Source of the DNA: an uncultured virus (IMG/VR IMGVR_UViG_3300028840_003545)
Taxonomy: Duplodnaviria; Heunggongvirae; Uroviricota; Caudoviricetes
IMG/VR virus record: IMGVR_UViG_3300028840_003545
DNA length: 20,000 bases
Reading direction: 5' to 3' (one strand)
In this document: piece by piece, positions 3,045 through 17,333 of the stretch
Position numbering within the stretch: the stretch's first letter is position 1
Layout of the letters: each line of letters opens with the position of its first letter
Translations under genes and position numbers: made by a program
The notes under the pieces: model-generated
The model's database searches: none
What the model was told of the DNA's origin: nothing
The model's input: the letters and a program-made list of their open reading frames with translations, nothing else

Positions 3045-3096
3045 GGTTTTTCTCCTATAGTTATTTTATGATGCATAGCACCATTGAACTGAACGA

Positions 3097-3126
3097 AGTG
3101 TAACCTGGAACGGTTCCAGGTGTCAA
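3097..3126 (-). promoter_or_regulatory. sigma70-type promoter of the SSB-helicase-primase operon with a palindromic operator in the spacer
   Basis: Minus strand TTGACA (3126-3121), 18 nt, TACACT (3102-3097). The spacer is filled by the perfect dyad ACCTGGAAC-G-GTTCCAGGT (3103-3121). Confidence 0.65.
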
Positions 3127-3459
3127 TCGATGTCAACCTGGGTTACTCATCACAGTTACTATATGCTATGCTAGATACGTACTAGTTATGTTAACTGTGC
3201 GGTAAGTAATGCACTTCTGACATGTGGATCATGTAGCTATATTTGATTGTTCCATGTTTTTAGTGAACATGGAAGAGGTATGATAAAAGGAATCGTCTTT
3301 GTTTGGACGTAATTGACCCTGGGATCGATTTTGGGCTGATTAGTGTATAGGATACTTGAGTCACAATTGGACGCTATATAGCTAGCGAATTGGGGCAGTA
3401 ATTGGCGCAATTGGGTAGCGCTCGGATTAGGGCAGGGGTAGAACGCGTTTTTGAGCCTA

Positions 3460-3487
3460 GGGGTAGGGGGTAGTGTAGGGGCAGGGG
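3460..3487 (+). other. Canonical G-quadruplex-forming motif
   Basis: GGGG-TA-GGGGG-TAGTGTA-GGGG-CA-GGGG inside a G-skewed tract (about 3390-3530). Confidence 0.55.
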
Positions 3488-3550
3488 TGTCGAGCCTTTA
3501 CGGGTCGATTTCAGGGGTAGGACAAGGTAGGATTTATCGAGTGTTAGAAT

Positions 3551-3597
3551 TAAATAATAAAACGGTGGCTTTAGATCTATTTTGCTAAACCACCGTT
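3551..3597 (-). terminator. Second putative intrinsic terminator downstream of the wHTH gene
   Basis: Stem AACGGTGG-c-TTTAG ... CTAAA-CCACCGTT, followed on the minus strand by TTATTATTT. Confidence 0.5.
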
Positions 3598-3623
3598 AAC
3601 TAATTCTATAGACTTAAATGCGG

Positions 3624-3644
3624 AAAGCCCCGCTTTCGCGGGGC
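3624..3644 (-). terminator. Intrinsic terminator of the wHTH gene
   Basis: Minus strand GCCCCGC-GAAA-GCGGGGC-TTT (GNRA tetraloop), about 30 nt after the stop codon. Confidence 0.7.
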
Positions 3645-3675
3645 CTATGTGGTGGGACGTAGTACGATGTAGGTT

Positions 3676-4221
3676 TTATTCTTCGTCGCTCGTGTCGTCG
3701 CTGTCGTCCACATTTTCCACGTTCAGGAAGTAGCGCGTTCCGCGTCGTTCTCCCTCTTTTCTTGCGGTTCCATCGGCGAGCATGGCTTTCGCGATTCGGG
3801 AGACTTCCTTGCTTTCCAGACCACAGGATGCGGCGAGTTGACCCACCGTTTTTCCTTCGCCGTCGAGATGGTCAAGCAATGCTTCCTTTTCTTCATCGCT
3901 GGCTTTCGCCGTGTTGGTAGAAGAACCGGACGAAACAGACTTCTTACGAACCTTCAAGGACTGACAAAGGAACGTGATTTTGTCATCATCGGACGCGGTG
4001 GCGCCCATGGGACCGGCGTCAAACCACTGCAAAAGTTCTGCTGCCTTTTCTTTGCGCGTGCCAAATCCGCTGATTTGCTCTTCGAGTGTCTTGACCGCTT
4101 GCTTCGCCTTTTCTAGGCTTTCGTTCAGCTTCGTAAGCTCCGTTTCGTCATCAATACCCCAACCAACTTCACCATAGAAAACTTCGAGAAATGCGGACTG
4201 TGCTTTGTTAAGCTTCGCCAT
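3676..4221 (-). CDS. DNA-binding protein: N-terminal coiled coil plus C-terminal winged helix-turn-helix (alternative in-frame start at 4257)
   Basis: GGAGG SD before ATG 4221. C-terminal GKTVGQLAASCGLESKEVSRIAKAMLADGTARKEGERRGTRYF has the HTH plus wing pattern. Markedly GC-richer than its neighbours. Confidence 0.75.
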   Translation of the reverse strand: MAKLNKAQSAFLEVFYGEVGWGIDDETELTKLNESLEKAKQAVKTLEEQISGFGTRKEKAAELLQWFDAGPMGATASDDDKITFLCQSLKVRKKSVSSGSSTNTAKASDEEKEALLDHLDGEGKTVGQLAASCGLESKEVSRIAKAMLADGTARKEGERRGTRYFLNVENVDDSDDTSDEE

Positions 4222-4448
4222 GTTGGTTCCTCCGTTGCTGTTCTTACGTGCGCCCATTTTGGTTCCCCTTTTCTTTGGGAACCGTTGTTTCGTTCTGGGT
4301 ATCGGTTCCCGTTGCGTGCATTGGGAAGGTAACTCGGCTCAAAACCGTTGTCCACCCAAATTCGTATCGATATCCAAAAAAAAAATTACATAGGCAAAAA
4401 CGGTTACTTACACATATGGCAATCGGCAACCTAACCGGACACGAACCG

Positions 4449-4474
4449 TTAATTAATTCGAATGGATTAGTTAA
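4449..4474. promoter_or_regulatory. Dyad site A, TTAAYTAAT-N8-ATTAGTTAW
   Basis: TTAATTAAT-tcgaatgg-ATTAGTTAA; same geometry as 4652-4677. Confidence 0.5.
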
Positions 4475-4512
4475 GTTATTGATAGCAAAGATTCTCGAGG
4501 ATTAATGATTTT

Positions 4513-4534
4513 TGGCATATGGATTGCTAACGCG
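4513..4534 (+). promoter_or_regulatory. sigma54-type -24/-12 box, copy 1 of a 22-bp direct repeat
   Basis: TGGCATATGGATTGCTAACGCG: GG-N10-GC with TGGCA and TTGCT. Confidence 0.65.
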
Positions 4535-4589
4535 CGAGCGCTGTGTAAGACAAGGTGCGTGATAATTATGATAGCTGTTTTGCCAATTC

Positions 4590-4611
4590 TGGCATATGGA
4601 TTGCTAACGCG
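4590..4611 (+). promoter_or_regulatory. sigma54-type -24/-12 box, copy 2 of a 22-bp direct repeat
   Basis: Identical 22-mer, 77 bp after copy 1. Confidence 0.65.
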
Positions 4612-4651
4612 TGCGCGTTCCTTTCTCACGTTAGCGAAGTGTAGCAAAACG

Positions 4652-4677
4652 TTAACTAATTGCGTTCGATTAGTTAT
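4652..4677. promoter_or_regulatory. Dyad site B, TTAAYTAAT-N8-ATTAGTTAW
   Basis: TTAACTAAT-tgcgttcg-ATTAGTTAT; the dyad extends outward to AACG...CGTT. Confidence 0.5.
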
Positions 4678-4720
4678 CGTTCGAAAAGAAAATTGAATGG
4701 GAAAGGGATAGTATAGATAT

Positions 4721-5479
4721 CTAAATATCTGACAGACTTTCTATAAGCATATTAAGTTTTTCTTCTAGTTTAACAAGGGTCGGTGCCTTTAAGGTTCCGG
4801 CTCTTATGCTTTTATGCTTCTTAAGGTATGGTCTTATATGTGCCACATAACCTTTAGATGTTTTATTTGATAATTCAAAACCTCTTTTACCAAAAAAATC
4901 AGTACCTTTAGTTAATATTCTAGTACGCAATGTTGTAGCATGTTTGGTTGGTTTAGGCTCACTGATTGAATAAAAGTCATACTTACTTATATTAGCGTCA
5001 CCTGCATCAGAAAATGAATAAAAGCCGCTGCCGGTAACTACTAGATGATCTACTACATCTATACCTATAATTCGACCGGCTTTAACACATTCTTTCGTTA
5101 GGTTAAGGTCTGCTCTACTAGGTTTTAACACGCCAGAAGGGTGGTTATGTGCTACTATTATATATACAGCACCAACGATAATAGCTGCTCTAAATATATC
5201 TCTTATGTGTACACCTAAGTTATTAGCTGTTCCACGAGCTACCTCTGATACGCTTAATACCTTCATTTGAGAGTCTAAACAGATAACATAAAATACCTCT
5301 TGTTCTTCAGAGGTAACTCTCTTTTCTAGTATATCCCAAGCCTCAGACGCTTCTCTAACTTCTCCTAAAACTGGTTTATCAAAAAACTTAGTATCTCTAC
5401 ATATTCTAATCCATTCTGGACCGCTTCTTTCTATCTTACACGAAGATTTAGTATTGCTTTCCAAATTTCTTTTGCCCAT
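4721..5479 (-). CDS. radC: RadC-like JAB/MPN domain protein with a basic C-terminal extension
   Basis: EQEVFYVICLD, RDIFRAAI, HNHPSG..PS..D and DHLVV motifs. Start moved from 5785 to ATG 5479 (AAAGGGA upstream), because the longer ORF is a shadow of the SGNH gene; the exact start is uncertain. Confidence 0.88.
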   Translation of the reverse strand: MGKRNLESNTKSSCKIERSGPEWIRICRDTKFFDKPVLGEVREASEAWDILEKRVTSEEQEVFYVICLDSQMKVLSVSEVARGTANNLGVHIRDIFRAAIIVGAVYIIVAHNHPSGVLKPSRADLNLTKECVKAGRIIGIDVVDHLVVTGSGFYSFSDAGDANISKYDFYSISEPKPTKHATTLRTRILTKGTDFFGKRGFELSNKTSKGYVAHIRPYLKKHKSIRAGTLKAPTLVKLEEKLNMLIESLSDI

Positions 5480-6015
5480 TGTTGATATCCCTTTCCAGAA
5501 GGATGCACTCCATCTGGCAAATTTATGTCTAATTGATCTGATGGAAAGTTTTCTATCCCTGTTTGCAGCAGCTTTTCTCTTACTATATCTATATTTTTCA
5601 TGTTTACTTTTGGTGGCATTATCCAATAAATTCGAGCATTGCCAGCAAGCTTTCTTATTTGTTCTACATATTCTGGTACTTTGTTCGGATCTACGAAGCC
5701 ATAAGCGTCGTTTGTTCCTAAAGATATAAGTATAATAGTCGGTTTGAATTCTTTTACTCCTTGCCACCATGATTCTTTTATCCAATGAGTCATAGCAGTT
5801 CCACCTTTAGACGATACGCCAAAAGGTACGTTTTGTGAATTAGCTATCTCTCTTAAAGGAGTTTTAAGGCCAACAGCTAAACTGTCGCCTATAAGGTAGA
5901 CTCTTTGTTTACTAATATCTATTTTAGGTTTATAGAATATTGCAGTAGCAGTAGCACCTACTCCTGCTACTATCAAAGCTATAGAGCCGTATTTCAGTGT
6001 ATCATTCTTGATCAT
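5431..6015 (-). CDS. SGNH/GDSL hydrolase with an N-terminal membrane anchor
   Basis: IGDSL, GG, LGTND and DGVHP catalytic blocks; hydrophobic IALIVAGVGATATAIF. Start probably ATG 6015. Confidence 0.88.
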   Translation of the reverse strand: MIKNDTLKYGSIALIVAGVGATATAIFYKPKIDISKQRVYLIGDSLAVGLKTPLREIANSQNVPFGVSSKGGTAMTHWIKESWWQGVKEFKPTIILISLGTNDAYGFVDPNKVPEYVEQIRKLAGNARIYWIMPPKVNMKNIDIVREKLLQTGIENFPSDQLDINLPDGVHPSGKGYQQWAKEIWKAILNLRVR

Positions 6016-6799
6016 CTTCCAAAAAATCCAATCCGTCAGATTCACTTTTACCACAGTGATGACATTTAGAGTTTACTTTCTTAAATCTATTACAATGACT
6101 GCACTTGTCTACCTTAAACTGAATGAATGATTGCAAATCCGAAACATCTTGGGCTAGCATTTGTATTTGATCTGTAAAACCTCTAACATGTTTTTCTACA
6201 ACCTTTAAATGTTCACTTGTTGTAGCTGCTTTAGCTAGTAGTACAGCATTGTAAAGTGTGTAATCTACACTTCCTTTTATCCATCCATCTGGAGTAAACA
6301 CTTGTAAAGTAGGCCAACCATGAGCACCTTGTGGACCCTGCGTTTCAAATGACTTTAGCATAGCTTGCAAGGCTTCTTTACAAGCTAGCGTAATAGCTTC
6401 CATCTGATAGAATTTTTTAGTTATACCTCTAAGCTCTTTAACTCTATCTGACGCTATCTCTAATTTGGATTTGGCTATTTCTGTTTCTCTATTTTGTTGA
6501 TTTGCTTTTTCAACTATAGATTGTATCTGATTAGTTTGAGCTAATGTAATACCCATATTAGCCAGTTCAGTAAGAGCTTTCTGTCCTACAATACTAACTA
6601 TAATTTCTTCTTGTGTAGGCTGTCTTTGAGGAGCAGGAGAATTATCCTCTAAATCAGCTTCAGTTATATTCTGAACTGGGGTTGGGGTGGAATTTTTAGA
6701 CTCTTCTGTGGTTGATTCATTTTGCATATTAATATCCTTTTCTTTCTTTTCTTGTTGTTTTTTAGCTCTTCTTACTTTATCTCTGTAACTTTCACTCAT
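6002..6799 (-). CDS. Hypothetical protein, coiled coil with C-terminal zinc finger
   Basis: 265-aa ORF with ATGA coupling; CSHC-x8-CHHC near the C-terminus. Confidence 0.75.
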   Translation of the reverse strand: MSESYRDKVRRAKKQQEKKEKDINMQNESTTEESKNSTPTPVQNITEADLEDNSPAPQRQPTQEEIIVSIVGQKALTELANMGITLAQTNQIQSIVEKANQQNRETEIAKSKLEIASDRVKELRGITKKFYQMEAITLACKEALQAMLKSFETQGPQGAHGWPTLQVFTPDGWIKGSVDYTLYNAVLLAKAATTSEHLKVVEKHVRGFTDQIQMLAQDVSDLQSFIQFKVDKCSHCNRFKKVNSKCHHCGKSESDGLDFLEDDQE

Positions 6800-8124: not shown

Positions 8125-8469
8125 TCAACCGTTATCAACCCACGTGTAGACTAGAGCATTCGCAAGTCGCTGAATAGAAACAATTCTTCCATCCTTTGGG
8201 TACAGCGCAGCCCACTCGTCAAACAGAGATTTTTGATTTTTAAACAGTTTTCTTATATGTTCATGAACTTGTGGTATAGTTTCATAACCATAATGAGGTT
8301 GATCTGGTACAGGCATTATATAGTATTTCCATACTAGTTCTCCAGACAGCTTTCTACCAACATGTCTATGTAATGCGTATATCTTGTAAAATCCTATCCT
8401 CATATACATGTATATAAGTATACTATCGTAATATGAGGTTTTACGCACATTTCCGAAAGGATGTTTCAT
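8125..8469 (-). CDS. Hypothetical protein
   Basis: Start reassigned to ATG 8469 (MKHPFG...), which overlaps the upstream stop as ATGA. Confidence 0.65.
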   Translation of the reverse strand: MKHPFGNVRKTSYYDSILIYMYMRIGFYKIYALHRHVGRKLSGELVWKYYIMPVPDQPHYGYETIPQVHEHIRKLFKNQKSLFDEWAALYPKDGRIVSIQRLANALVYTWVDNG

Positions 8470-10523
8470 ATTATCTGATTTGGGTACAGTGTTGAGATTT
8501 TCTCTATGTTTTCTTCGATATTTTCGCCGTCTTTTTGCCAATCTTTAATAGCGTTACCAAAATTCTTCTTTAGTAGGTTTATGAATACGTCAAAAAATGC
8601 AGTAAACATTACGTTAGCAAATTCTTCTGCACTGTCATATTTTACAGTTTTATCTAGTTTACTGTTTACTTTTTCATTTCCGAATCCAGGTAAGGTTATC
8701 TGGTAACATTTCTCTCTTGTATATCCATGGAATAGTACAATTGGAACTTTAGGTGACATTACCATTGCGGATATACCAAAATTATGAACTACAATTTGGG
8801 TCCAAAGTGTTATCGGGTATCTTTTACGTCCTGCTGTAAACCTTAACTCTACAAGACCTACCTTAGCTTCTTTAAACGGCATACTTGGAATCCAAGCATC
8901 TTCAGCTTTCCTTAGTCTTATTGCAGCTGTTCCTCCATACACTTTTCTTTCTTGCTCTATATTGTATTCTATTTCTGATAAGAACTTTCTTTTACAGTCT
9001 AAATATCCAAGCTTCTTTTCTCTTGCTCTATTAAGTTCTCTCTCTTCTTTTTCAGCTTCAGGTAAACCTATCTCAGATTCGTATTCTCTTCTTAGTTGAT
9101 TTCTTTCTGACCAGGTTAAATCTCTTGCTTCATGTTCTAATTTAGATAAGTAAATGTGTAATTTTTTCTTTAATTCTTCAGCTTTATCATATACAGCTTG
9201 TTCTGATGCAGATTTTTTACTGTACATCTTTTCTAGGTCTGCTTCTTTTTGTTTTAGACCATCTGATGTTATATCTCCAATCCATTCTACATTAAATGCA
9301 TATTTTTGGTTAGGTAACTTTTTAGCTTTCTTAGGTGGAGCTTTAGTTCCAGTAGTTACAATTTTACATCTGTTAACTTTAGTTTGTGAAACCCCTTTAT
9401 ATTCTCCGTGTTCTTTAACTGTACACATAAGTGTATGTTTAGAGCCTATAGTTAATTCTGTTATAGCTTTAGACGAATACCATAGTATGGCATTTCCACT
9501 ATCGTCTATCATGTCATACATATGAGTTGTACCACGGAAACCTTTAAAGCTTCTCACTGCTCTTACAGTTACATTTGATACTATCTTCTCTCCTACTTCA
9601 CCTACATGCGTACTAGATTCAGCTTCTATTCCTTTAGCTAAATCTCTGTGATACGCTGGTACCATACTTGCTGCTAGGTATATATCCTTATCTTTTACGT
9701 ACTCTCTCTTTGCTATAACATGTAAGTTCCATAGATAATCAGAACTAGTATTTTCATCTATATTCTTTCCCCATTCTACAGTCTTTTTAGCTGTTTCACG
9801 GTCTGATTCTTTTGGCGTGTACTTACCAGCTATTTTATCTGACCTAATTATGAATGTAGCTACTGTAGCTGTAGGTGCTATCGGTTCTAAGCTTGTTTTA
9901 AAACTTTCATCAGCTTTGCTTTTAGAGACGAATCCAGAAGTTCTAACTACATATGCTACGTACGTTAGATAAAAGTCTAAATAGAAAGCTTTAGCACTAT
10001 CTGCTGCTGCTGATGGGTCAAAGTCACTTTCAGTTTCTAAAAAGTCTTTAATTAACACTAATCCGTCTGCTACGTCTGCTATAGCTGCTGGATTTTGGTG
10101 TCCAGTGAAGTCTTTTAAACATTCTCTTCCAACTTGCTTGTAATCGACACCACCAACTTTTCTTATTAGGAATGTATCTTTTCTACGTCTATTAAGTTTA
10201 CAGTGGTCGCATTTAGCTCCACTTTTTCTGTATTTTTTTGGTATAGGTAGCTTACTTAGTGGTTTTAGAACATTTCCTTCTTCGCTATGTTCTATTTTAC
10301 CAGCAAATTTCCATCCACCAATAGCGGGTAGATTTCCTGCTATAGTTACAGGAATAACTTCTACAACAAATTTATGACCTTTTTGATCTTCTACTCGTTT
10401 AGCTTTAGTTTTTCCTAACTCATAGTCGAATGTTATTCCTAATTTAGATGCTTTATTCTTGAGTCTCTTTAGCTTTTTTACTACGTAGTCTATACGAGAT
10501 TCTGGTATTTCGAATGTGGACAT
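8466..10523 (-). CDS. Large phage protein with Zn-ribbon-like and OB-fold-like domains
   Basis: CDHC..RRRKDTFL..QVGRECLKDF motif, then HVGEVGEK...W...GSKHTLMCTVKEHGEYKGVSQTKVNRCK (OB-fold-like), then a coiled coil. Confidence 0.75.
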   Translation of the reverse strand: MSTFEIPESRIDYVVKKLKRLKNKASKLGITFDYELGKTKAKRVEDQKGHKFVVEVIPVTIAGNLPAIGGWKFAGKIEHSEEGNVLKPLSKLPIPKKYRKSGAKCDHCKLNRRRKDTFLIRKVGGVDYKQVGRECLKDFTGHQNPAAIADVADGLVLIKDFLETESDFDPSAAADSAKAFYLDFYLTYVAYVVRTSGFVSKSKADESFKTSLEPIAPTATVATFIIRSDKIAGKYTPKESDRETAKKTVEWGKNIDENTSSDYLWNLHVIAKREYVKDKDIYLAASMVPAYHRDLAKGIEAESSTHVGEVGEKIVSNVTVRAVRSFKGFRGTTHMYDMIDDSGNAILWYSSKAITELTIGSKHTLMCTVKEHGEYKGVSQTKVNRCKIVTTGTKAPPKKAKKLPNQKYAFNVEWIGDITSDGLKQKEADLEKMYSKKSASEQAVYDKAEELKKKLHIYLSKLEHEARDLTWSERNQLRREYESEIGLPEAEKEERELNRAREKKLGYLDCKRKFLSEIEYNIEQERKVYGGTAAIRLRKAEDAWIPSMPFKEAKVGLVELRFTAGRKRYPITLWTQIVVHNFGISAMVMSPKVPIVLFHGYTREKCYQITLPGFGNEKVNSKLDKTVKYDSAEEFANVMFTAFFDVFINLLKKNFGNAIKDWQKDGENIEENIEKISTLYPNQII

Positions 10524-10525
10524 TA

Positions 10526-13500
10526 TTATCTAGCCTTTTTTAGTGTACGAAGTTTTACACCTAATTTATCAAATACACCCATAGGCTTGAATATTGGTTT
10601 ATGTGATTTAAGTACAGCTATTATATCTTGTACTTGTTTATCTGATGGGAATGGTGGGAATGTTTTATTCATTCTCTTTACATTTGCTATCCATTTAGCT
10701 GTAAATGGTGTAGACATTCCCTCTTCTTTCAGTGCGTCGAAATACTCATCTAAAAACTTGATTGAGCTTCTAGCTACTTCTCTTTGAGATTTGCTATATT
10801 TACCATCCTTAGTTGTTGGTTTTTCTATAGCTTTAGTAGCGGTTTTTTCTTTCTGTAGTTGTGCTACAAACATTTCAGCTACTTTAATATCTGAAGAGTA
10901 TTTTTTAGTTATCAATCCAATACCAGGTATGAAAATTAAAGTTCTTACACCTGGCTGTCCATAAGATACGTATGCATATTTACCAGGGCTTGTAGTTGTG
11001 CCGTCTTTTCTTTTGTAGGCTATGCCTATTCTTTTTATGTCACGTATTTCATTAGTTCTTTCACTACCTTCGAATTCTTTGATAGCCACTGGTGGAGAGA
11101 ATTTATATTCCCATACTTTGTATGTAAGTCTAGGATCTACTTTTCCAGATGGTTGTTTTATATCATTATCTTCGTATACAACTTCTCCCCAGTAAATATC
11201 TTTAAGTGACTTCGTTTTAATAGGAACATAGTCAGGGGGTTCTGTATTACGTTTTTTAGTCTTTTTGCCGATAGGTTTAACCTCTGCCGGTTTATCGTCA
11301 CTAGCAGGAACCTTTTTAGGTCTACCTCTACCTTTCTTAAGCTTCATACTTACCATCAGTGCTTGATATTTGTCATCTAGCTGTTTCCAATAAGTATTCA
11401 GTATACCCTTAAATACATCAGCTAGCTTATCACTTATATCTGTTTCATCTTCAATTTTAGAGCATTCTTCTGTTAGTATTTGTAGATCTATAGGTTCCAA
11501 GTCTGTTGCATTATCTGCTAACCATTTAGACGTTAAAAGAAGGACCCTTTTTTGCTTATTTGTAAATAATGGCTTTTCATCTTTAGGCCAAAGACCTAAG
11601 ACGTCTCTTGTATGATTATCTAATTGACGTCTATGGGTATTTAGTATGGGTAGAGCTATATCCATATCATTATCTTCTAAATATGGTTGAGAAGCTAATG
11701 CCTTACCAGGATAGCTGTTTGGTTTATTAAAACCCATACCATCCTTTTCTTGTGCTCCGTCACATATAGTTGCTAGGTAATTAAGTGCAGAATGAGCTAT
11801 TTGTTTTTGTTCATCTGTATAAGTTTTAGTAGCTACAGTCTTAGCTTTTGGTTTTTCTTCATAATCTTTACTACTAGATATAGCAGAACCTTCTTCTTGT
11901 TCATATGTGGAAGTTGCTTGTATGCCAGCTACTTCGATCTTTTTAACTATATCTTCAGGATCTACGCCTCCCTTTGGAATATCCTTAGCAGGAACACCTA
12001 TCTTGGAATAAAGATCCAATGCACTAGTTATAACCTCCATTTTTTCTACGAACATTCTCGAGATTTTGGCGTCTATAGAATCTGCGTAAACAAGGTGCTG
12101 CACTAGTACATTCTTACGTTGTCCTATTCTATGGGCTCTATCTTCGCCCTGTAGCATTTCAGATGGTACGAATTGAAGCTCTACAAAAACAACCACATTA
12201 GCTTCCGTTAGTGTAATACCAGTATAAGCCGCACTTGTTCCAATGAATACCTTAATAGGAGAATCTTTGTCCTGAAATGTATCGATAGCAACTTGTTTTT
12301 GTTTACTATTCATCTTACCCGTGTAAACTACGGGTTTGTATTTATCTGTGTAAACTTCACCCTTACCTTTTACAGTTTCATGGGTAAAGCCGTATTCAAG
12401 TGCCTCTACAACATCATGATGGTGGGCGAATACGATAATTTTATCTACACCGTTAGACATACTGTCTATAATGTTTTTACAGTGTTCTACTGCTGCTTTA
12501 ACCTTAGCAAGACCGATATCATGTCTGATTTCAGCTATCTCTTCAAAGTCTACTTTTTCCTCTTCCATTGAATTAGCTGCAGCTACAAATTCAGCATCGT
12601 TGTTTGTAACTTCAGCTTTTTCTAATAGTTTTACTAATTTATTACCGCTAGAAGGTAATCTTTTCTTTTCTTCTTCTAGCATTTTCTTTGTTTTTGTATC
12701 TGGTTCTAAAAATACCAGTTGTCTAGTTTTAGCCGGCAATTCGCTTAAAACGTCAGACTTTAATCTTCTTATCATTATAGTAGATCTAAGAAGACTTTCT
12801 AATTGTGGCAGTTTTGAACTACCTTTAACATCTAAAGCTTCTCTGCCGTATCCGATACCTACTTTTTTGGCGCAACAGTACGTGTAAACATATCTTATAT
12901 AATTATTAAATGTGTTAGGATCTAATGTAGAAACCAAAGACCAAAGTTCAACTGGTCTGTTTTTTATTGGTGTACCTGTTAGATATATACGTTTTTTAGC
13001 TACAGTTGCTATCCCATCGTGAAAAGTAAAAGGCTCTTTTAGCTCTTGATATCCAAGGATAGCTCTAGTTCTTTTAGCAGCGGGGTTTTTCAGATTATGA
13101 GCTTCGTCGACAACTTCTCATACAATTTGGTCGTCTTTTTGGTATATCAGCTACTTTATCTACTACAACTGTTTGACATTTTCTAGTTGCAAACTTTTCA
13201 AATTCTCTTTGCCAATTTATCTTAACTGCGGAAGGGCATATTACTAAAACATCTTGGATAGTTGAGTCTACATTGGTTACACCGATTGCTTGAAATGTTT
13301 TACCAAGACCTTGCTCATCAGCTATTAGGGATCCACTTCGTTCTAGTGCCCATTTAATTCCTGCTCTTTGATAGTCTTTAGGTTTAATACCAGGAGGAAC
13401 AGGTACATTTATATCTGCACTGCTAGCTTTAGATTGTTGTATTGTTTCATTGTAAGCATGCAAAAGTTCTGCTGCTAGTCCTGTAGCATATTGATTTAAT

Positions 13501-14036
13501 AGGTTTGCTACGAATATATTTGGCGTCCACCAAGTATTAGGTGGCACCCCGTATCTTTCAGTCATATCTCTCATATATTTAGGAAATTTCTTTTGTCCCT
13601 CTTTGCTTTCTGAATACATAAATCCATAGTTACCCTTGCGACAAATATCGTCTTTATCATACCATACACTCCTAAGAGTTTTGGAATGTATTTTGGAGAA
13701 TTTTGAAGCATAAAAATAAGATAAAGTTGGATCACCACATTCCATATAGCTTATTTCTAATTCAGCAGTTTCTAATTCTTTTTCAAATTCTTTCATTGCC
13801 TCCAATGCTTCTTTATCTGCAAAATTTTGCATTCGTAAGGCAATTTTATAATCTGTTGTATACCATGTCCATTCTGGTACACCTAATCTTTGCGCATAAG
13901 CATTACCAGGCCAAGCAGATGTAAAACCATTTTCTTTTAGAATATAAGGATCGGTACCTTCTTGTTTTGAGCTACCTCTACCTGATTTGGCCCAAAAATA
14001 TTCTTTATTTTTATTGTAGTGGATTGTTATTGCCAT
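10526..14036 (-). pseudogene. SNF2/SMARCAL1-like helicase, disrupted near 13095-13140 (true lesion or assembly error)
   Basis: Frame 1 (14036-13095) has YQ, DEQGLGKT and motif Ia CPSAVKINW. Frame 2, open 13117-10526, has VVDEAH (DEAH at 13097-13108), LTGTP, IRRLKSDVLSELPAK, GITLT and QGEDRAHRIGQ. Confidence 0.85.
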
Positions 14037-16016: not shown

Positions 16017-16229
16017 CTATCCTTTATCTAGTGCTGAGTGTACAGCACTGTTGAATGCCAGGTTAGCATGTACATCTTTATTCATATCATCTTCTGATAT
16101 TTTAGCTAATGAGTGTTGCATTTTTGTTAATGGAATGTTATCATTTAAACAATGATCAGCTAAAATTCTAAGTAGTGTCCTTGTTTCTACAGTATCTTCT
16201 ATTTCTATAGTTATCTTAGACATGATCAA
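16017..16229 (-). CDS. Hypothetical protein
   Basis: 70-aa ORF, ATGA overlap. Confidence 0.65.
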   Translation of the reverse strand: MIMSKITIEIEDTVETRTLLRILADHCLNDNIPLTKMQHSLAKISEDDMNKDVHANLAFNSAVHSALDKG

Positions 16230-17095
16230 AATTCCTCGTCATCTTTAAATTCTTCATTTTCATTTTCCGTTGGATAGTCAACGCGAATTGCTTTTTTACC
16301 ATCTGGCGTGTCGTATATTTCAACTAGATCGTTTTCAACCAATTGATCTATAATATTTCTTCTTTCAGCAGCAGATTGCGGTATCTGATTACTAGACCAA
16401 CGCGTTACGAAGTAGTTGACTCCTACGTAACCAGAGCCAAACTTTTCTTGTGCTTTAGAAACCTCTTCTACGAAGTGCTCAAACATAGTTTGCTCATCTA
16501 CTTCTGGAATATCTTCTTCTATATTATTTGGTTGAGCTTTAGTATTGTAGTTAAAGAAGCTACTACCTCTATTGAGGTTAATGTGACAGAATGCTGCTTT
16601 ACGAATTTTGTTGGATAGTCCACTACCACCCCAACTAGCCACCGCTACCTGTTTAGCTAGTCTTTGAACACCTTCAATAGCAGGACAATAGTCGCTATCA
16701 CCACTAATCAGCACGCATCGATCAAATGCATTGATTGCTGCGTAAAACATCATATCAGCGACCATAGACGTATCAACCTCTTTCTCTTGTGTAAAGAAGT
16801 TGACTTGTCCACAGTCAGCACAGTCAAATTGTTGCTGTCTACGTGGGAATCGGCGAACGAAAAATCCGCTTTGAATCTCTAACATATCAAGGAAGCTATT
16901 TAGTTTTTCTTGTTGTTCTGTTTCAGAATTGGAGCCAACTTCAATTCCTGTATAATAGTATACAGCGAATAGTTCACTACCACCACACTGGTCTATAATC
17001 CACTTAGTCATCTTTTGAAAATCAAGCTTTTCACCGCCAGATTCTTTCCACCCAGCATAAAAATTCTTACCATCGATAAAGATTGCAATTTTCAT
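16226..17095 (-). CDS. NYN domain (LabA/DUF88, PIN-like) nuclease with CxxC insert and C-terminal helical domain
   Basis: IFIDGKN, EKEVD, LISGDSDY and C-terminal SNKIRKAA motifs; start ATG 17095 after TAAGGA. Confidence 0.9.
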   Translation of the reverse strand: MKIAIFIDGKNFYAGWKESGGEKLDFQKMTKWIIDQCGGSELFAVYYYTGIEVGSNSETEQQEKLNSFLDMLEIQSGFFVRRFPRRQQQFDCADCGQVNFFTQEKEVDTSMVADMMFYAAINAFDRCVLISGDSDYCPAIEGVQRLAKQVAVASWGGSGLSNKIRKAAFCHINLNRGSSFFNYNTKAQPNNIEEDIPEVDEQTMFEHFVEEVSKAQEKFGSGYVGVNYFVTRWSSNQIPQSAAERRNIIDQLVENDLVEIYDTPDGKKAIRVDYPTENENEEFKDDEEF

Positions 17096-17105
17096 TTTTT
17101 TGTCC

Positions 17106-17333
17106 TTAGTATTCGAGGTTATACGCAAAATCTACTACAGTATCGCCGTCTTCGTTTTCTGTAAAAAACGCAGTTAATTTGTTACCTTTATCTGAAGCTG
17201 TTTCTATTATATTTTTACCTGTTGCTTTTCTTGATTTACATATATCGAACAGCATTCTTTCGCTTATTCTTATATGGTCACCATTGATAACCAGATCCAT
17301 AGCTTCGTTAACTCTTTCTTCTTCTTTAGTCAT
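17106..17333 (-). CDS. Hypothetical protein
   Basis: 75-aa ORF in a tightly packed train. Confidence 0.7.
   Translation of the reverse strand: MTKEEERVNEAMDLVINGDHIRISERMLFDICKSRKATGKNIIETASDKGNKLTAFFTENEDGDTVVDFAYNLEY

Follow-up and report, generated by a model that had tools for sequence, protein, structure and literature searches.

Transcription by sigma-54 is usually viewed as a bacterial response to stress and nutrients, and its enhancer-dependent -24/-12 promoters include the textbook cases glnAp2, pspA, and nifH. Here, we describe a locus in a stretch of 20,000 nucleotides (hereafter, the window, taken at its full length) from an uncultured marine-sediment virus of the Caudoviricetes (IMG/VR record IMGVR_UViG_3300028840_003545), in which two candidate sites of this type, set between two dyads, lie upstream of and divergent from an open reading frame (ORF) for a winged-helix protein, ORF193, and antisense to radC. 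The nearest published parallels that we found are sigma-54 sites in Escherichia coli and Salmonella that face away from or against genes, for which the sections of the two reports drawn on here propose antisense RNA, transcriptional interference, or repression (PMC4591121, PMC3844500). According to the same sections, E. coli sites pointing away from neighboring genes are bound by sigma-54, and one strongly bound site, in a table footnoted with an "outside antisense" class, starts with CTGGCATAT, like the second of the two sites of the window (PMC4591121). As described there, these orphan sites share with the pair in the window a consensus-quality motif and the want of a suitably oriented neighboring gene; they differ in being chromosomal, single, and bound in chromatin immunoprecipitation, whereas the pair in the window is a duplication on a mobile phage segment. 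The literature that we searched, subscription journals being outside its scope, yielded no published description of pairs or arrays of sigma-54 sites in phage genomes. A 2026 preprint, in the part consulted, proposes a phage protein that resembles enhancer-binding proteins and does not have the loop that contacts sigma-54.

The 22-mer TGGCATATGGATTGCTAACGCG occurs twice on the plus strand, at 4513 to 4534 and 4590 to 4611, 77 bp apart from start to start, as an earlier note made from the letters alone had recorded. The similarity in fact extends over 31 nt (4510 to 4540 versus 4587 to 4617; 90% identity), whereas the 46 nt that separate these units and their outer flanks are unalignable. The two copies are the sole matches to the 22-mer in the window at up to 3 mismatches, and none of 200 shuffles gave any. 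The core TGGCA-N6-TTGCW has two exact matches in the window against 0.08 expected, a count reached in 1 of 200 shuffles; since the boxes are copies of each other, these two matches are to be counted as one event. Both boxes have the GG and GC doublets (-24/-25 and -12/-13) at the exact spacing of 10 nt and agree with the extended consensus YTGGCAYR-N4-TTGCW at every specified position, so that the identification of a full RpoN -24/-12 element in the earlier note is upheld, with four further positions, calibrated below, in agreement. Because the 31-nt unit at 4510 to 4540 corresponds to about -29 to +2 of the predicted promoter, the conserved unit holds the whole of the predicted sigma-54 promoter and nothing else. 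The starts on which this numbering depends were placed 19 bp past the center of the motif, following the rule given in the part of the E. coli study consulted (PMC4591121).

The two dyads match TTAAYTAAT-N8-ATTAGTTAW exactly (4449 to 4474 and 4652 to 4677) and are separated from the neighboring boxes by 38 bp (4475 to 4512) and 40 bp (4612 to 4651), in exact agreement with the geometry described before. Their extended half-site CGTTAAYTAAT is present in three exact copies against 0.03 expected, all on the plus strand and all within 3594 to 4660, which bracket ORF193. The copy at 3594 and the divergent winged-helix gene itself were absent from the earlier note, and what that note took for a free-standing symmetric module is instead the 440-bp region upstream of this gene, which the dyad-box-box-dyad array fills with its boxes pointing away from the gene, in a strain-variable segment of deviant composition. 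Dyad 1, centered at -77 relative to the predicted start of box 1, corresponds to no activator site that we could name. Between it and box 1 lies a match to the IHF consensus, which we take to be WATCAANNNNTTR; over both strands of the 20-kb window this motif has two matches. Dyad 2, read on the minus strand, is a hairpin followed by TTTTGC, 40 nt past the radC stop. The locus thus resembles bacterial sigma-54 promoters in its doublets at 10 nt, its agreement with YTGGCAYR-N4-TTGCW, a dyad about 77 bp upstream, and an IHF-like match in between. It differs from them in that its boxes have no downstream gene, form an identical tandem pair, and are followed from -10 to +1 by an alternating CG tract, in that the second dyad lies downstream, and in that the element is carried on a phage cassette.

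We scanned IMG/VR for two TGGCA-N6-TTGC boxes 47 to 77 nt apart and recovered at least 123 loci, with 10 true tandem-repeat loci and exact duplicates left out of the counts. Among the matches listed, to which the tallies of boxes and pairs in this paragraph refer, 104 boxes lie outside ORFs and 74 lie inside ORFs of at least 90 aa. A pyrimidine precedes TGGCA in 90% of the former and 58% of the latter; C or T occupies position 6 in 95% versus 47%, G or A occupies position 7 in 93% versus 74%, and A or T follows TTGC in 92% versus 47%. Since the boxes inside ORFs, which serve as an internal control, depart from the consensus at these free positions, the intergenic tandem boxes of phages are, by their base preferences, genuine sigma-54-type elements and not chance matches. 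Both boxes of the window are consensus-like at all four positions. As for orientation, by crude ORF calls on what are in many cases short loci, the next ORF is on the same strand in 17 of the 52 intergenic pairs, on the opposite strand in 14, and unscorable in 21. Of the 31 pairs that could be scored, 14 are thus oriented away from the following gene, so that among phages it is not exceptional for a pair to have nothing to drive. The tail TTGCT[A/T]CGCG, similar to TTGCTAACGCG of the window, recurs behind differing N6 spacers in 6 of the 104 intergenic boxes, which are analogous and not homologous to those of the window. Box-bearing contigs hold clusters of boxes, and a control with the reversed pattern found none.

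The pair in the window shares with the IMG/VR clusters listed the core, the preference at free positions, a tandem spacing of 62 to 92 bp, a frequent orientation away from genes, and, in some of them, an ACGCG-type tail. It differs from these clusters, which are often larger arrays and in some cases head-to-head, in that it has just two boxes, which are associated with two dyads and the gene of a winged-helix protein. Palindromes have no preferred distance from the box across 233 phage boxes, and for this reason the dyads look like a feature of the cassette in the window and not of the wider class of boxes. One viral contig (L005/L007) agrees with box 2 at 28 of 32 nt, three of the four mismatches being in the spacer; the match is inside a 266-aa ORF, the contig has three exact cores, all of them intragenic, and there is no protein similarity to the window, so how it relates to box 2 is ambiguous. 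A search of the other box-bearing contigs for activator genes with PF00158 gave one weak hit and was uninformative, the profile having matched all 14 control genomes, archaea included.

Several of the recovered contigs have arrangements of their own. In L110, a 17.8-kb contig with seven exact cores, CG-rich noncoding DNA at 1090 to 1330 has ACGCGCG-tailed boxes arranged back-to-back at a distance of about 10 nt and face-to-face at about 14 nt; some dimeric protein that is not sigma-54 could also fit such a palindromic layout. In the 322.5-kb jumbo-phage contig L052, TGGCATAAGGGTTGCA and TGGCATAGGGATTGCA lie 77 bp apart at 1201 to 1292, a spacing equal to that of the window, with a similar spacer, and four TGGCATCCTTTTTGCA-type boxes occur on both strands within 2.6 kb. 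Eight contigs of giant-virus size (L057, L058, L076, L087, L089, L090, L168, and L169) contain long arrays of 68- to 72-bp tandem repeats with TGGCAG-N5-TTGCA in each unit; position 6 is off the sigma-54 consensus in these, and they were not counted.

The duplication of the box is not an assembly artifact, a possibility that the earlier note had named, since identical unitigs from two sequencing runs carry it. In each of the runs X1 (2018) and X2 (2021), which belong to different studies and either of which may be the source sample of the window, a 1,133-nt Logan unitig covers 3596 to 4728 with 0 differences, and the exact repeat of 22 nt is shorter than the 30-letter overlap of neighboring unitigs. 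The unitigs of both runs end at 3596 to 3625 and 4699 to 4728, at which the assembly graph forks. One X1 contig agrees with the window from 4699 rightwards, whereas its 255 letters to the left are unlike it; therefore, at least one co-occurring genotype carries other sequence in place of the right part of the segment between these points. A third run, X3, has no coverage from 3606 to 4698, which does not count as evidence that the segment is missing from its phage. The runs listed as containing the sequence included no RNA run. The composition of this stretch also differs, with a G+C fraction of 0.45 to 0.58 over 3600 to 4350 against about 0.35 for the window. Morons, a concept due to Hendrix and colleagues, are extra transcription units between conserved phage genes, and the variable junctions together with the shift in composition make the segment at 3596 to 4698 fit a moron-like cassette. 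Like morons, it has one small gene, a terminator-like hairpin of its own, a long upstream region, and a composition unlike its surroundings, it lies between conserved genes (those of an SSB-like protein and radC), and a co-occurring genotype has an alternative sequence at its right junction; the candidates for a leftward promoter of its own are weak. Unlike morons, its upstream region has outward-facing sigma-54-type sites, and its variation in relatives rests on one alternative junction and no full empty site: among the run contigs compared, none bridges an empty cassette site.

By DNA, the region had no match in 50,697 phage records, and ORF193 had none there as a protein; the 22-mer was not found in IMG/VR or in contigs of genome collections; in IMG/VR, ORF193, RadC, and the SSB-like protein did not lead to any usable locus with shared synteny; and a scan of metagenomes for relatives returned solely a distant winged-helix gene of high G+C content (L003). 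The ORF193 family is tiny, with 22 representatives among 1.84 billion proteins. Its true start is likely to be the ATG at 4221, behind GGAGGA, which gives a product of 181 aa; this form is found as protein P0001, and the genes of the phage have strong Shine-Dalgarno sites. The AlphaFold2 model of ORF193 (predicted local distance difference test score of 85) is helical in its N-terminal half and has a winged helix at the C terminus, and its structural matches are generic winged-helix regulators only. In Pfam, MarR_2 matched below the cutoff (E = 8e-4), and no family in Pfam, PHROG, NCBIfam, or PADLOC names the protein; defense and naming libraries added no more than a weak winged-helix hit, and profile searches gave no match to Rep, DnaA, ParB, or other initiator families. 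The closest relatives, P0002 (73%), P0004, and P0005, are available as proteins alone. More distant homologs (L018, L036, and L037; 27 to 28% identity) occur in early or recombination regions of phages, adjoining genes for RecT, DUF5131, and thioredoxin. The winged helix superposes on Z-alpha domains with template modeling scores of 0.77 to 0.81 (E of about 0.01 to 0.04), and the boxes precede alternating CG. A Z-DNA reading of the protein was dropped, as the position of the key Z-alpha residue, which we take to be a tyrosine, is variable in the family alignment. The features of the locus are collected in Table 1, in which the hairpin past ORF193 is its probable terminator; a simple terminator scan omitted this hairpin, whose T run is short.

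Table 1. Features in and around the ORF193 cassette (positions refer to the window; promoters, starts, operators, and folds are predictions)
Feature	Positions	Strand	Remarks
Third exact half-site, CGTTAAYTAAT, downstream of ORF193	3594-3604	+	Exact match
Strain-variable, GC-richer segment with ORF193 and the entire dyad-box-box-dyad module	~3596-4698		Based on GC and unitig breaks
GC-rich hairpin, GCCCCGC GAAA GCGGGGC, then TTTCC	3621-3645	-	31 nt past the ORF193 stop; in the minimum-free-energy fold
ORF193, with helical N-terminal half, C-terminal winged helix, and acidic tail	3676-4257	-	193 aa
Inverted repeat GGGAACCG ... CGGTTCCC in the ORF193 leader	4277-4310		Inverted 8-mers; helix in the predicted fold
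Dyad 1, TTAATTAAT-N8-ATTAGTTAA	4449-4474		Centered 77 bp before the predicted box 1 start
IHF-like match TATCAATAACTTA, between dyad 1 and box 1	4472-4484	-	Found post hoc
Leftward sigma-70-like pair ATGCCA-16-GAGAAT	4491-4518	-	8/12; -35 is the reverse complement of TGGCAT in box 1
Box 1, 31-nt unit: TGGCATATGGATTGCT, then AACGCGCGAGCG	4510-4540	+	GG at 4514-4515, GC at 4526-4527
Predicted start of box 1	near 4539	+
Leftward sigma-70-like pair ATGCCA-16-TATCAT	4568-4595	-	9/12; -35 is the reverse complement of TGGCAT in box 2
Box 2, second 31-nt unit, then AACGCGTGCGCGTT	4587-4617	+	GG at 4591-4592, GC at 4603-4604
Predicted start of box 2	near 4616	+
Dyad 2, 13-nt arms at 4648-4660 and 4669-4681	4648-4681		Core 4652-4677; centered 48 bp past the predicted box 2 start

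We tentatively favor, at somewhat less than even confidence, the reading that the boxes are sigma-54-type sites for the host, placed in the regulatory DNA of a mobile winged-helix cassette, divergent from ORF193 and antisense to radC, with the dyads as operators or enhancers. In the mechanism that we propose, the 31-nt repeats would be RpoN -24/-12 sites read by the sigma-54 holoenzyme of the host. Activation, perhaps from dyad 1 across an IHF-like bend, would give plus-strand transcripts from about 4539 and about 4616, and these would exit the cassette some 80 nt further on and enter radC in the antisense direction. Without an activator, the holoenzyme would stay parked in a stable closed complex that covers the -35 hexamers of the two leftward sigma-70-like promoters, which could themselves drive ORF193. 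The dyads and the third half-site would serve as operators and be read by a dimeric regulator; ORF193 itself would be the most economical candidate, and a host enhancer-binding protein the alternative. We infer all of these from the letters of the locus: the binding of sigma-54, transcription, the protein that reads the dyads, and the effects on radC and ORF193. The sequences themselves show the anatomy of the locus, the statistics of its repeats, its setting in the cassette, and the abundance of consensus-like boxes of this kind in intergenic phage DNA.

Several observations weigh against this reading. The boxes face rightwards, against all the genes and toward the 3' end of radC, which is the next feature to their right and lies on the other strand (all long ORFs of the window, including radC, are on the minus strand), and the ORF listing of the window has no plus-strand gene downstream of them, so that the earlier statement that there is no sense gene to drive still stands. 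The sole plus-strand ORF of at least 25 aa that starts downstream of 4539 is a 29-aa frame with a GTG start (4555 to 4644) across box 2, and the plus-strand ORFs at 4248 to 4505 and 4505 to 4696 match no family. A terminator scan found no intrinsic terminator downstream of the boxes on the plus strand. No Rfam family reached its gathering score on either strand, and hits at E values of up to 5 were at chance level, with none within 4258 to 4720. The plus-strand fold of 4539 to 4700 is unremarkable (z of -1.6), with z scores of -1.7 for 4440 to 4700 on the plus strand and -0.7 for 4258 to 4700 on the minus strand. An RpoN or enhancer-binding protein encoded by the phage, which the earlier note had proposed looking for, was not seen, as no such Pfam family is present among the 21 window ORFs scanned; the remaining ORFs, one of 207 aa that overlaps radC (5431 to 6054) and others of at most 138 aa, are too short for either protein. 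That note's remark that myxobacteria use sigma-54 heavily has no bearing here, the phage being of 35% G+C. The alternating CG from -10 to +1 would be hard to melt, dyad 2 has an unusual position for an enhancer in being downstream of both boxes, and no boxes or dyads occur within 3 kb of the distant homologs of ORF193 (L018, L036, and L037). The lack of a preferred palindrome distance among the phage boxes points the same way. Moreover, the locus was chosen from very many windows for its sigma-54 look, and this selection inflates the apparent significance of the motif.

Since the two leftward sigma-70-like promoters overlap the boxes, an ordinary promoter and operator region of ORF193 is a live rival, and the verdict on the earlier interpretation is mixed: its sigma-54 motif and missing target gene stood, and its free-standing module and myxobacterial link did not. 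Under this alternative, the 22- to 31-mers would be the -35 element ATGCCA plus an upstream activator site of two tandem sigma-70-type promoters, the dyads would be operators for winged-helix dimers in autoregulation, possibly with looping between the three half-site positions, and the likeness to sigma-54 sites would be coincidental. It provides the gene that the boxes otherwise do not have, the predicted helical half and winged helix of ORF193 suit palindromic sites, and three exact half-sites flank that gene on both sides. Each box has a -10-like hexamer at the same spacing of 16 nt, and these two pairs are the only sigma-70-like hits on the minus strand between 4230 and 4720; on the other hand, pairs of equal quality occur at 8.4 per kb per strand in the window, the -10 hexamers fall outside the conserved unit, and 256 phage boxes have no excess of opposite-strand -10 hexamers at 16 to 18 nt (21 observed versus about 14 expected from other spacings). 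The box copies are identical also at positions where sigma-54 has no preference, which speaks for this alternative and against sigma-54 sites; by itself, such identity fits a recent copy or a stricter reader equally well with a promoter. A perfect sigma-54 core with four further consensus positions is left unexplained, and the 22-mer itself is not palindromic. On balance, we consider an ordinary promoter region unlikely, if an explanation to be kept in view. A lambda CII-type activator site, which is a TTGC-N6-TTGC arrangement with its tetranucleotide repeated 10 bp from start to start, was rejected, as the boxes read TGGC-N7-TTGC, 11 bp from start to start.

The boxes might also be relics, real by descent and idle in the phage, if the cassette was captured along with a divergent sigma-54 promoter region whose target gene was cut off at the right junction (about 4698). 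Bacteria commonly have a regulator gene that diverges from the promoter it controls, the composition of the cassette is foreign, its right edge lies about 82 nt past the second predicted start with no gene in between, and the absence of boxes near the distant ORF193 homologs would also be explained. Against decay, the copies are identical over 22 nt and 90% identical over 31 nt, yet the 46-nt interval and the flanks are unalignable, which argues for selection or recent conversion instead, and the sequence is unchanged between the runs of 2018 and 2021; relic promoters thus seem to us quite improbable. A nucleoprotein site for replication, partition, or packaging, be it an iteron-like origin with ORF193 as its protein or a site of the centromere or pac type that reuses the motif, is suggested by the position of the module among genes of replication (for primase, helicase, the SSB-like protein, and RadC), by direct repeats and dyads beside the gene of a DNA-binding protein, and by the strong structure of the neighboring 3045 to 3675. 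For iterons or a partition site, one would expect at least three direct repeats, in helical register and next to the gene of an initiator or a ParB-type protein, but there are just two direct repeats, 77 bp (7.3 helical turns) apart, and ORF193 matches no initiator or ParB family. Left of 4699, one or more co-occurring genotypes have a sequence unrelated to that of the window, which makes it unlikely that the segment is essential, and since the module belongs to the strain-variable cassette, the essential origin, packaging, or partition site envisaged in the earlier note is unlikely as well. We give the nucleoprotein site very little credence.

Taken as a single locus, the boxes of the window make a modest case, a motif-level inference from two boxes. 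The stronger lead is the wider pattern in IMG/VR, with its consensus at free positions and with nearly half of the scorable pairs facing away from the next gene, and it is plausible from these sequences that the locus is one instance of a use of sigma-54 sites by phages that appears widespread and, in the literature searched, undescribed. Were phages to orient consensus sigma-54 sites against genes of their own, enhancer-binding proteins of the host could couple infection to its physiological signals; alternatively, a parked holoenzyme could act as a roadblock or insulator. In its boldest form, which we regard as doubtful, the idea is that the pair belongs to a widespread class of phage sites at which host polymerase, stably parked and gated by an activator, would act at cassette borders, early or accessory, as an insulator or counter-promoter that can be switched. 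Here, the device would be portable, carried by a moron that also encodes a winged-helix reader of the dyads; it would gate read-through of the moron from the replication operon and, on a host signal, send antisense transcription into radC. The locus is compact and testable, comprising two sites and two dyads in about 260 bp and a single candidate regulator.

The window as a whole resembles a replication region, with genes for a primase, a helicase, the SSB-like protein, RadC (PF04002, E = 8e-37; 4721 to 5785, minus strand), pieces of a split SNF2 helicase, and an NYN protein, and the protein relatives of these genes are in phages of several phyla. A 1.7-kb interval of differing character, in which ORF193 is the sole gene, separates radC from the SSB-like gene. 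The noncoding 3045 to 3675, from the SSB-like gene to the ORF193 terminator, has fold z scores of -5.0 on the minus strand and -3.4 on the plus strand (20 shuffles each) and includes a G-rich TAGGGG-type repeat at 3458 to 3488; its parts at 3222 to 3398 and 3467 to 3625 are also present in the same runs as a roughly 90% diverged variant. At 3097 to 3126, a promoter-like site of the SSB-like gene, TTGACA-18-TACACT, has between its hexamers the perfect palindrome CCTGGAACGGTTCCAGG, which may be the operator of a phage regulator, and GGAACC/GGTTCC motifs recur in the ORF193 leader. Further along, the SNF2-type helicase is divided between two minus-strand ORFs about 157 nt apart, 13095 to 14036 (the start of SNF2) and 10526 to 12937 (the remainder and Helicase_C), and this could represent a split gene, a frameshift, or an intervening element. 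The first 390 residues of the 685-aa protein encoded at 8466 to 10523 match PHROG 2319 (E = 2e-71), and its relatives are found in jumbo phages of Vibrio and Aeromonas, one of them annotated as a RecT-like annealing protein; its C-terminal 300 residues received no assignment. The NYN-domain protein (16226 to 17128) also matches the candidate defense family HEC-09 of PADLOC (E = 8e-22).

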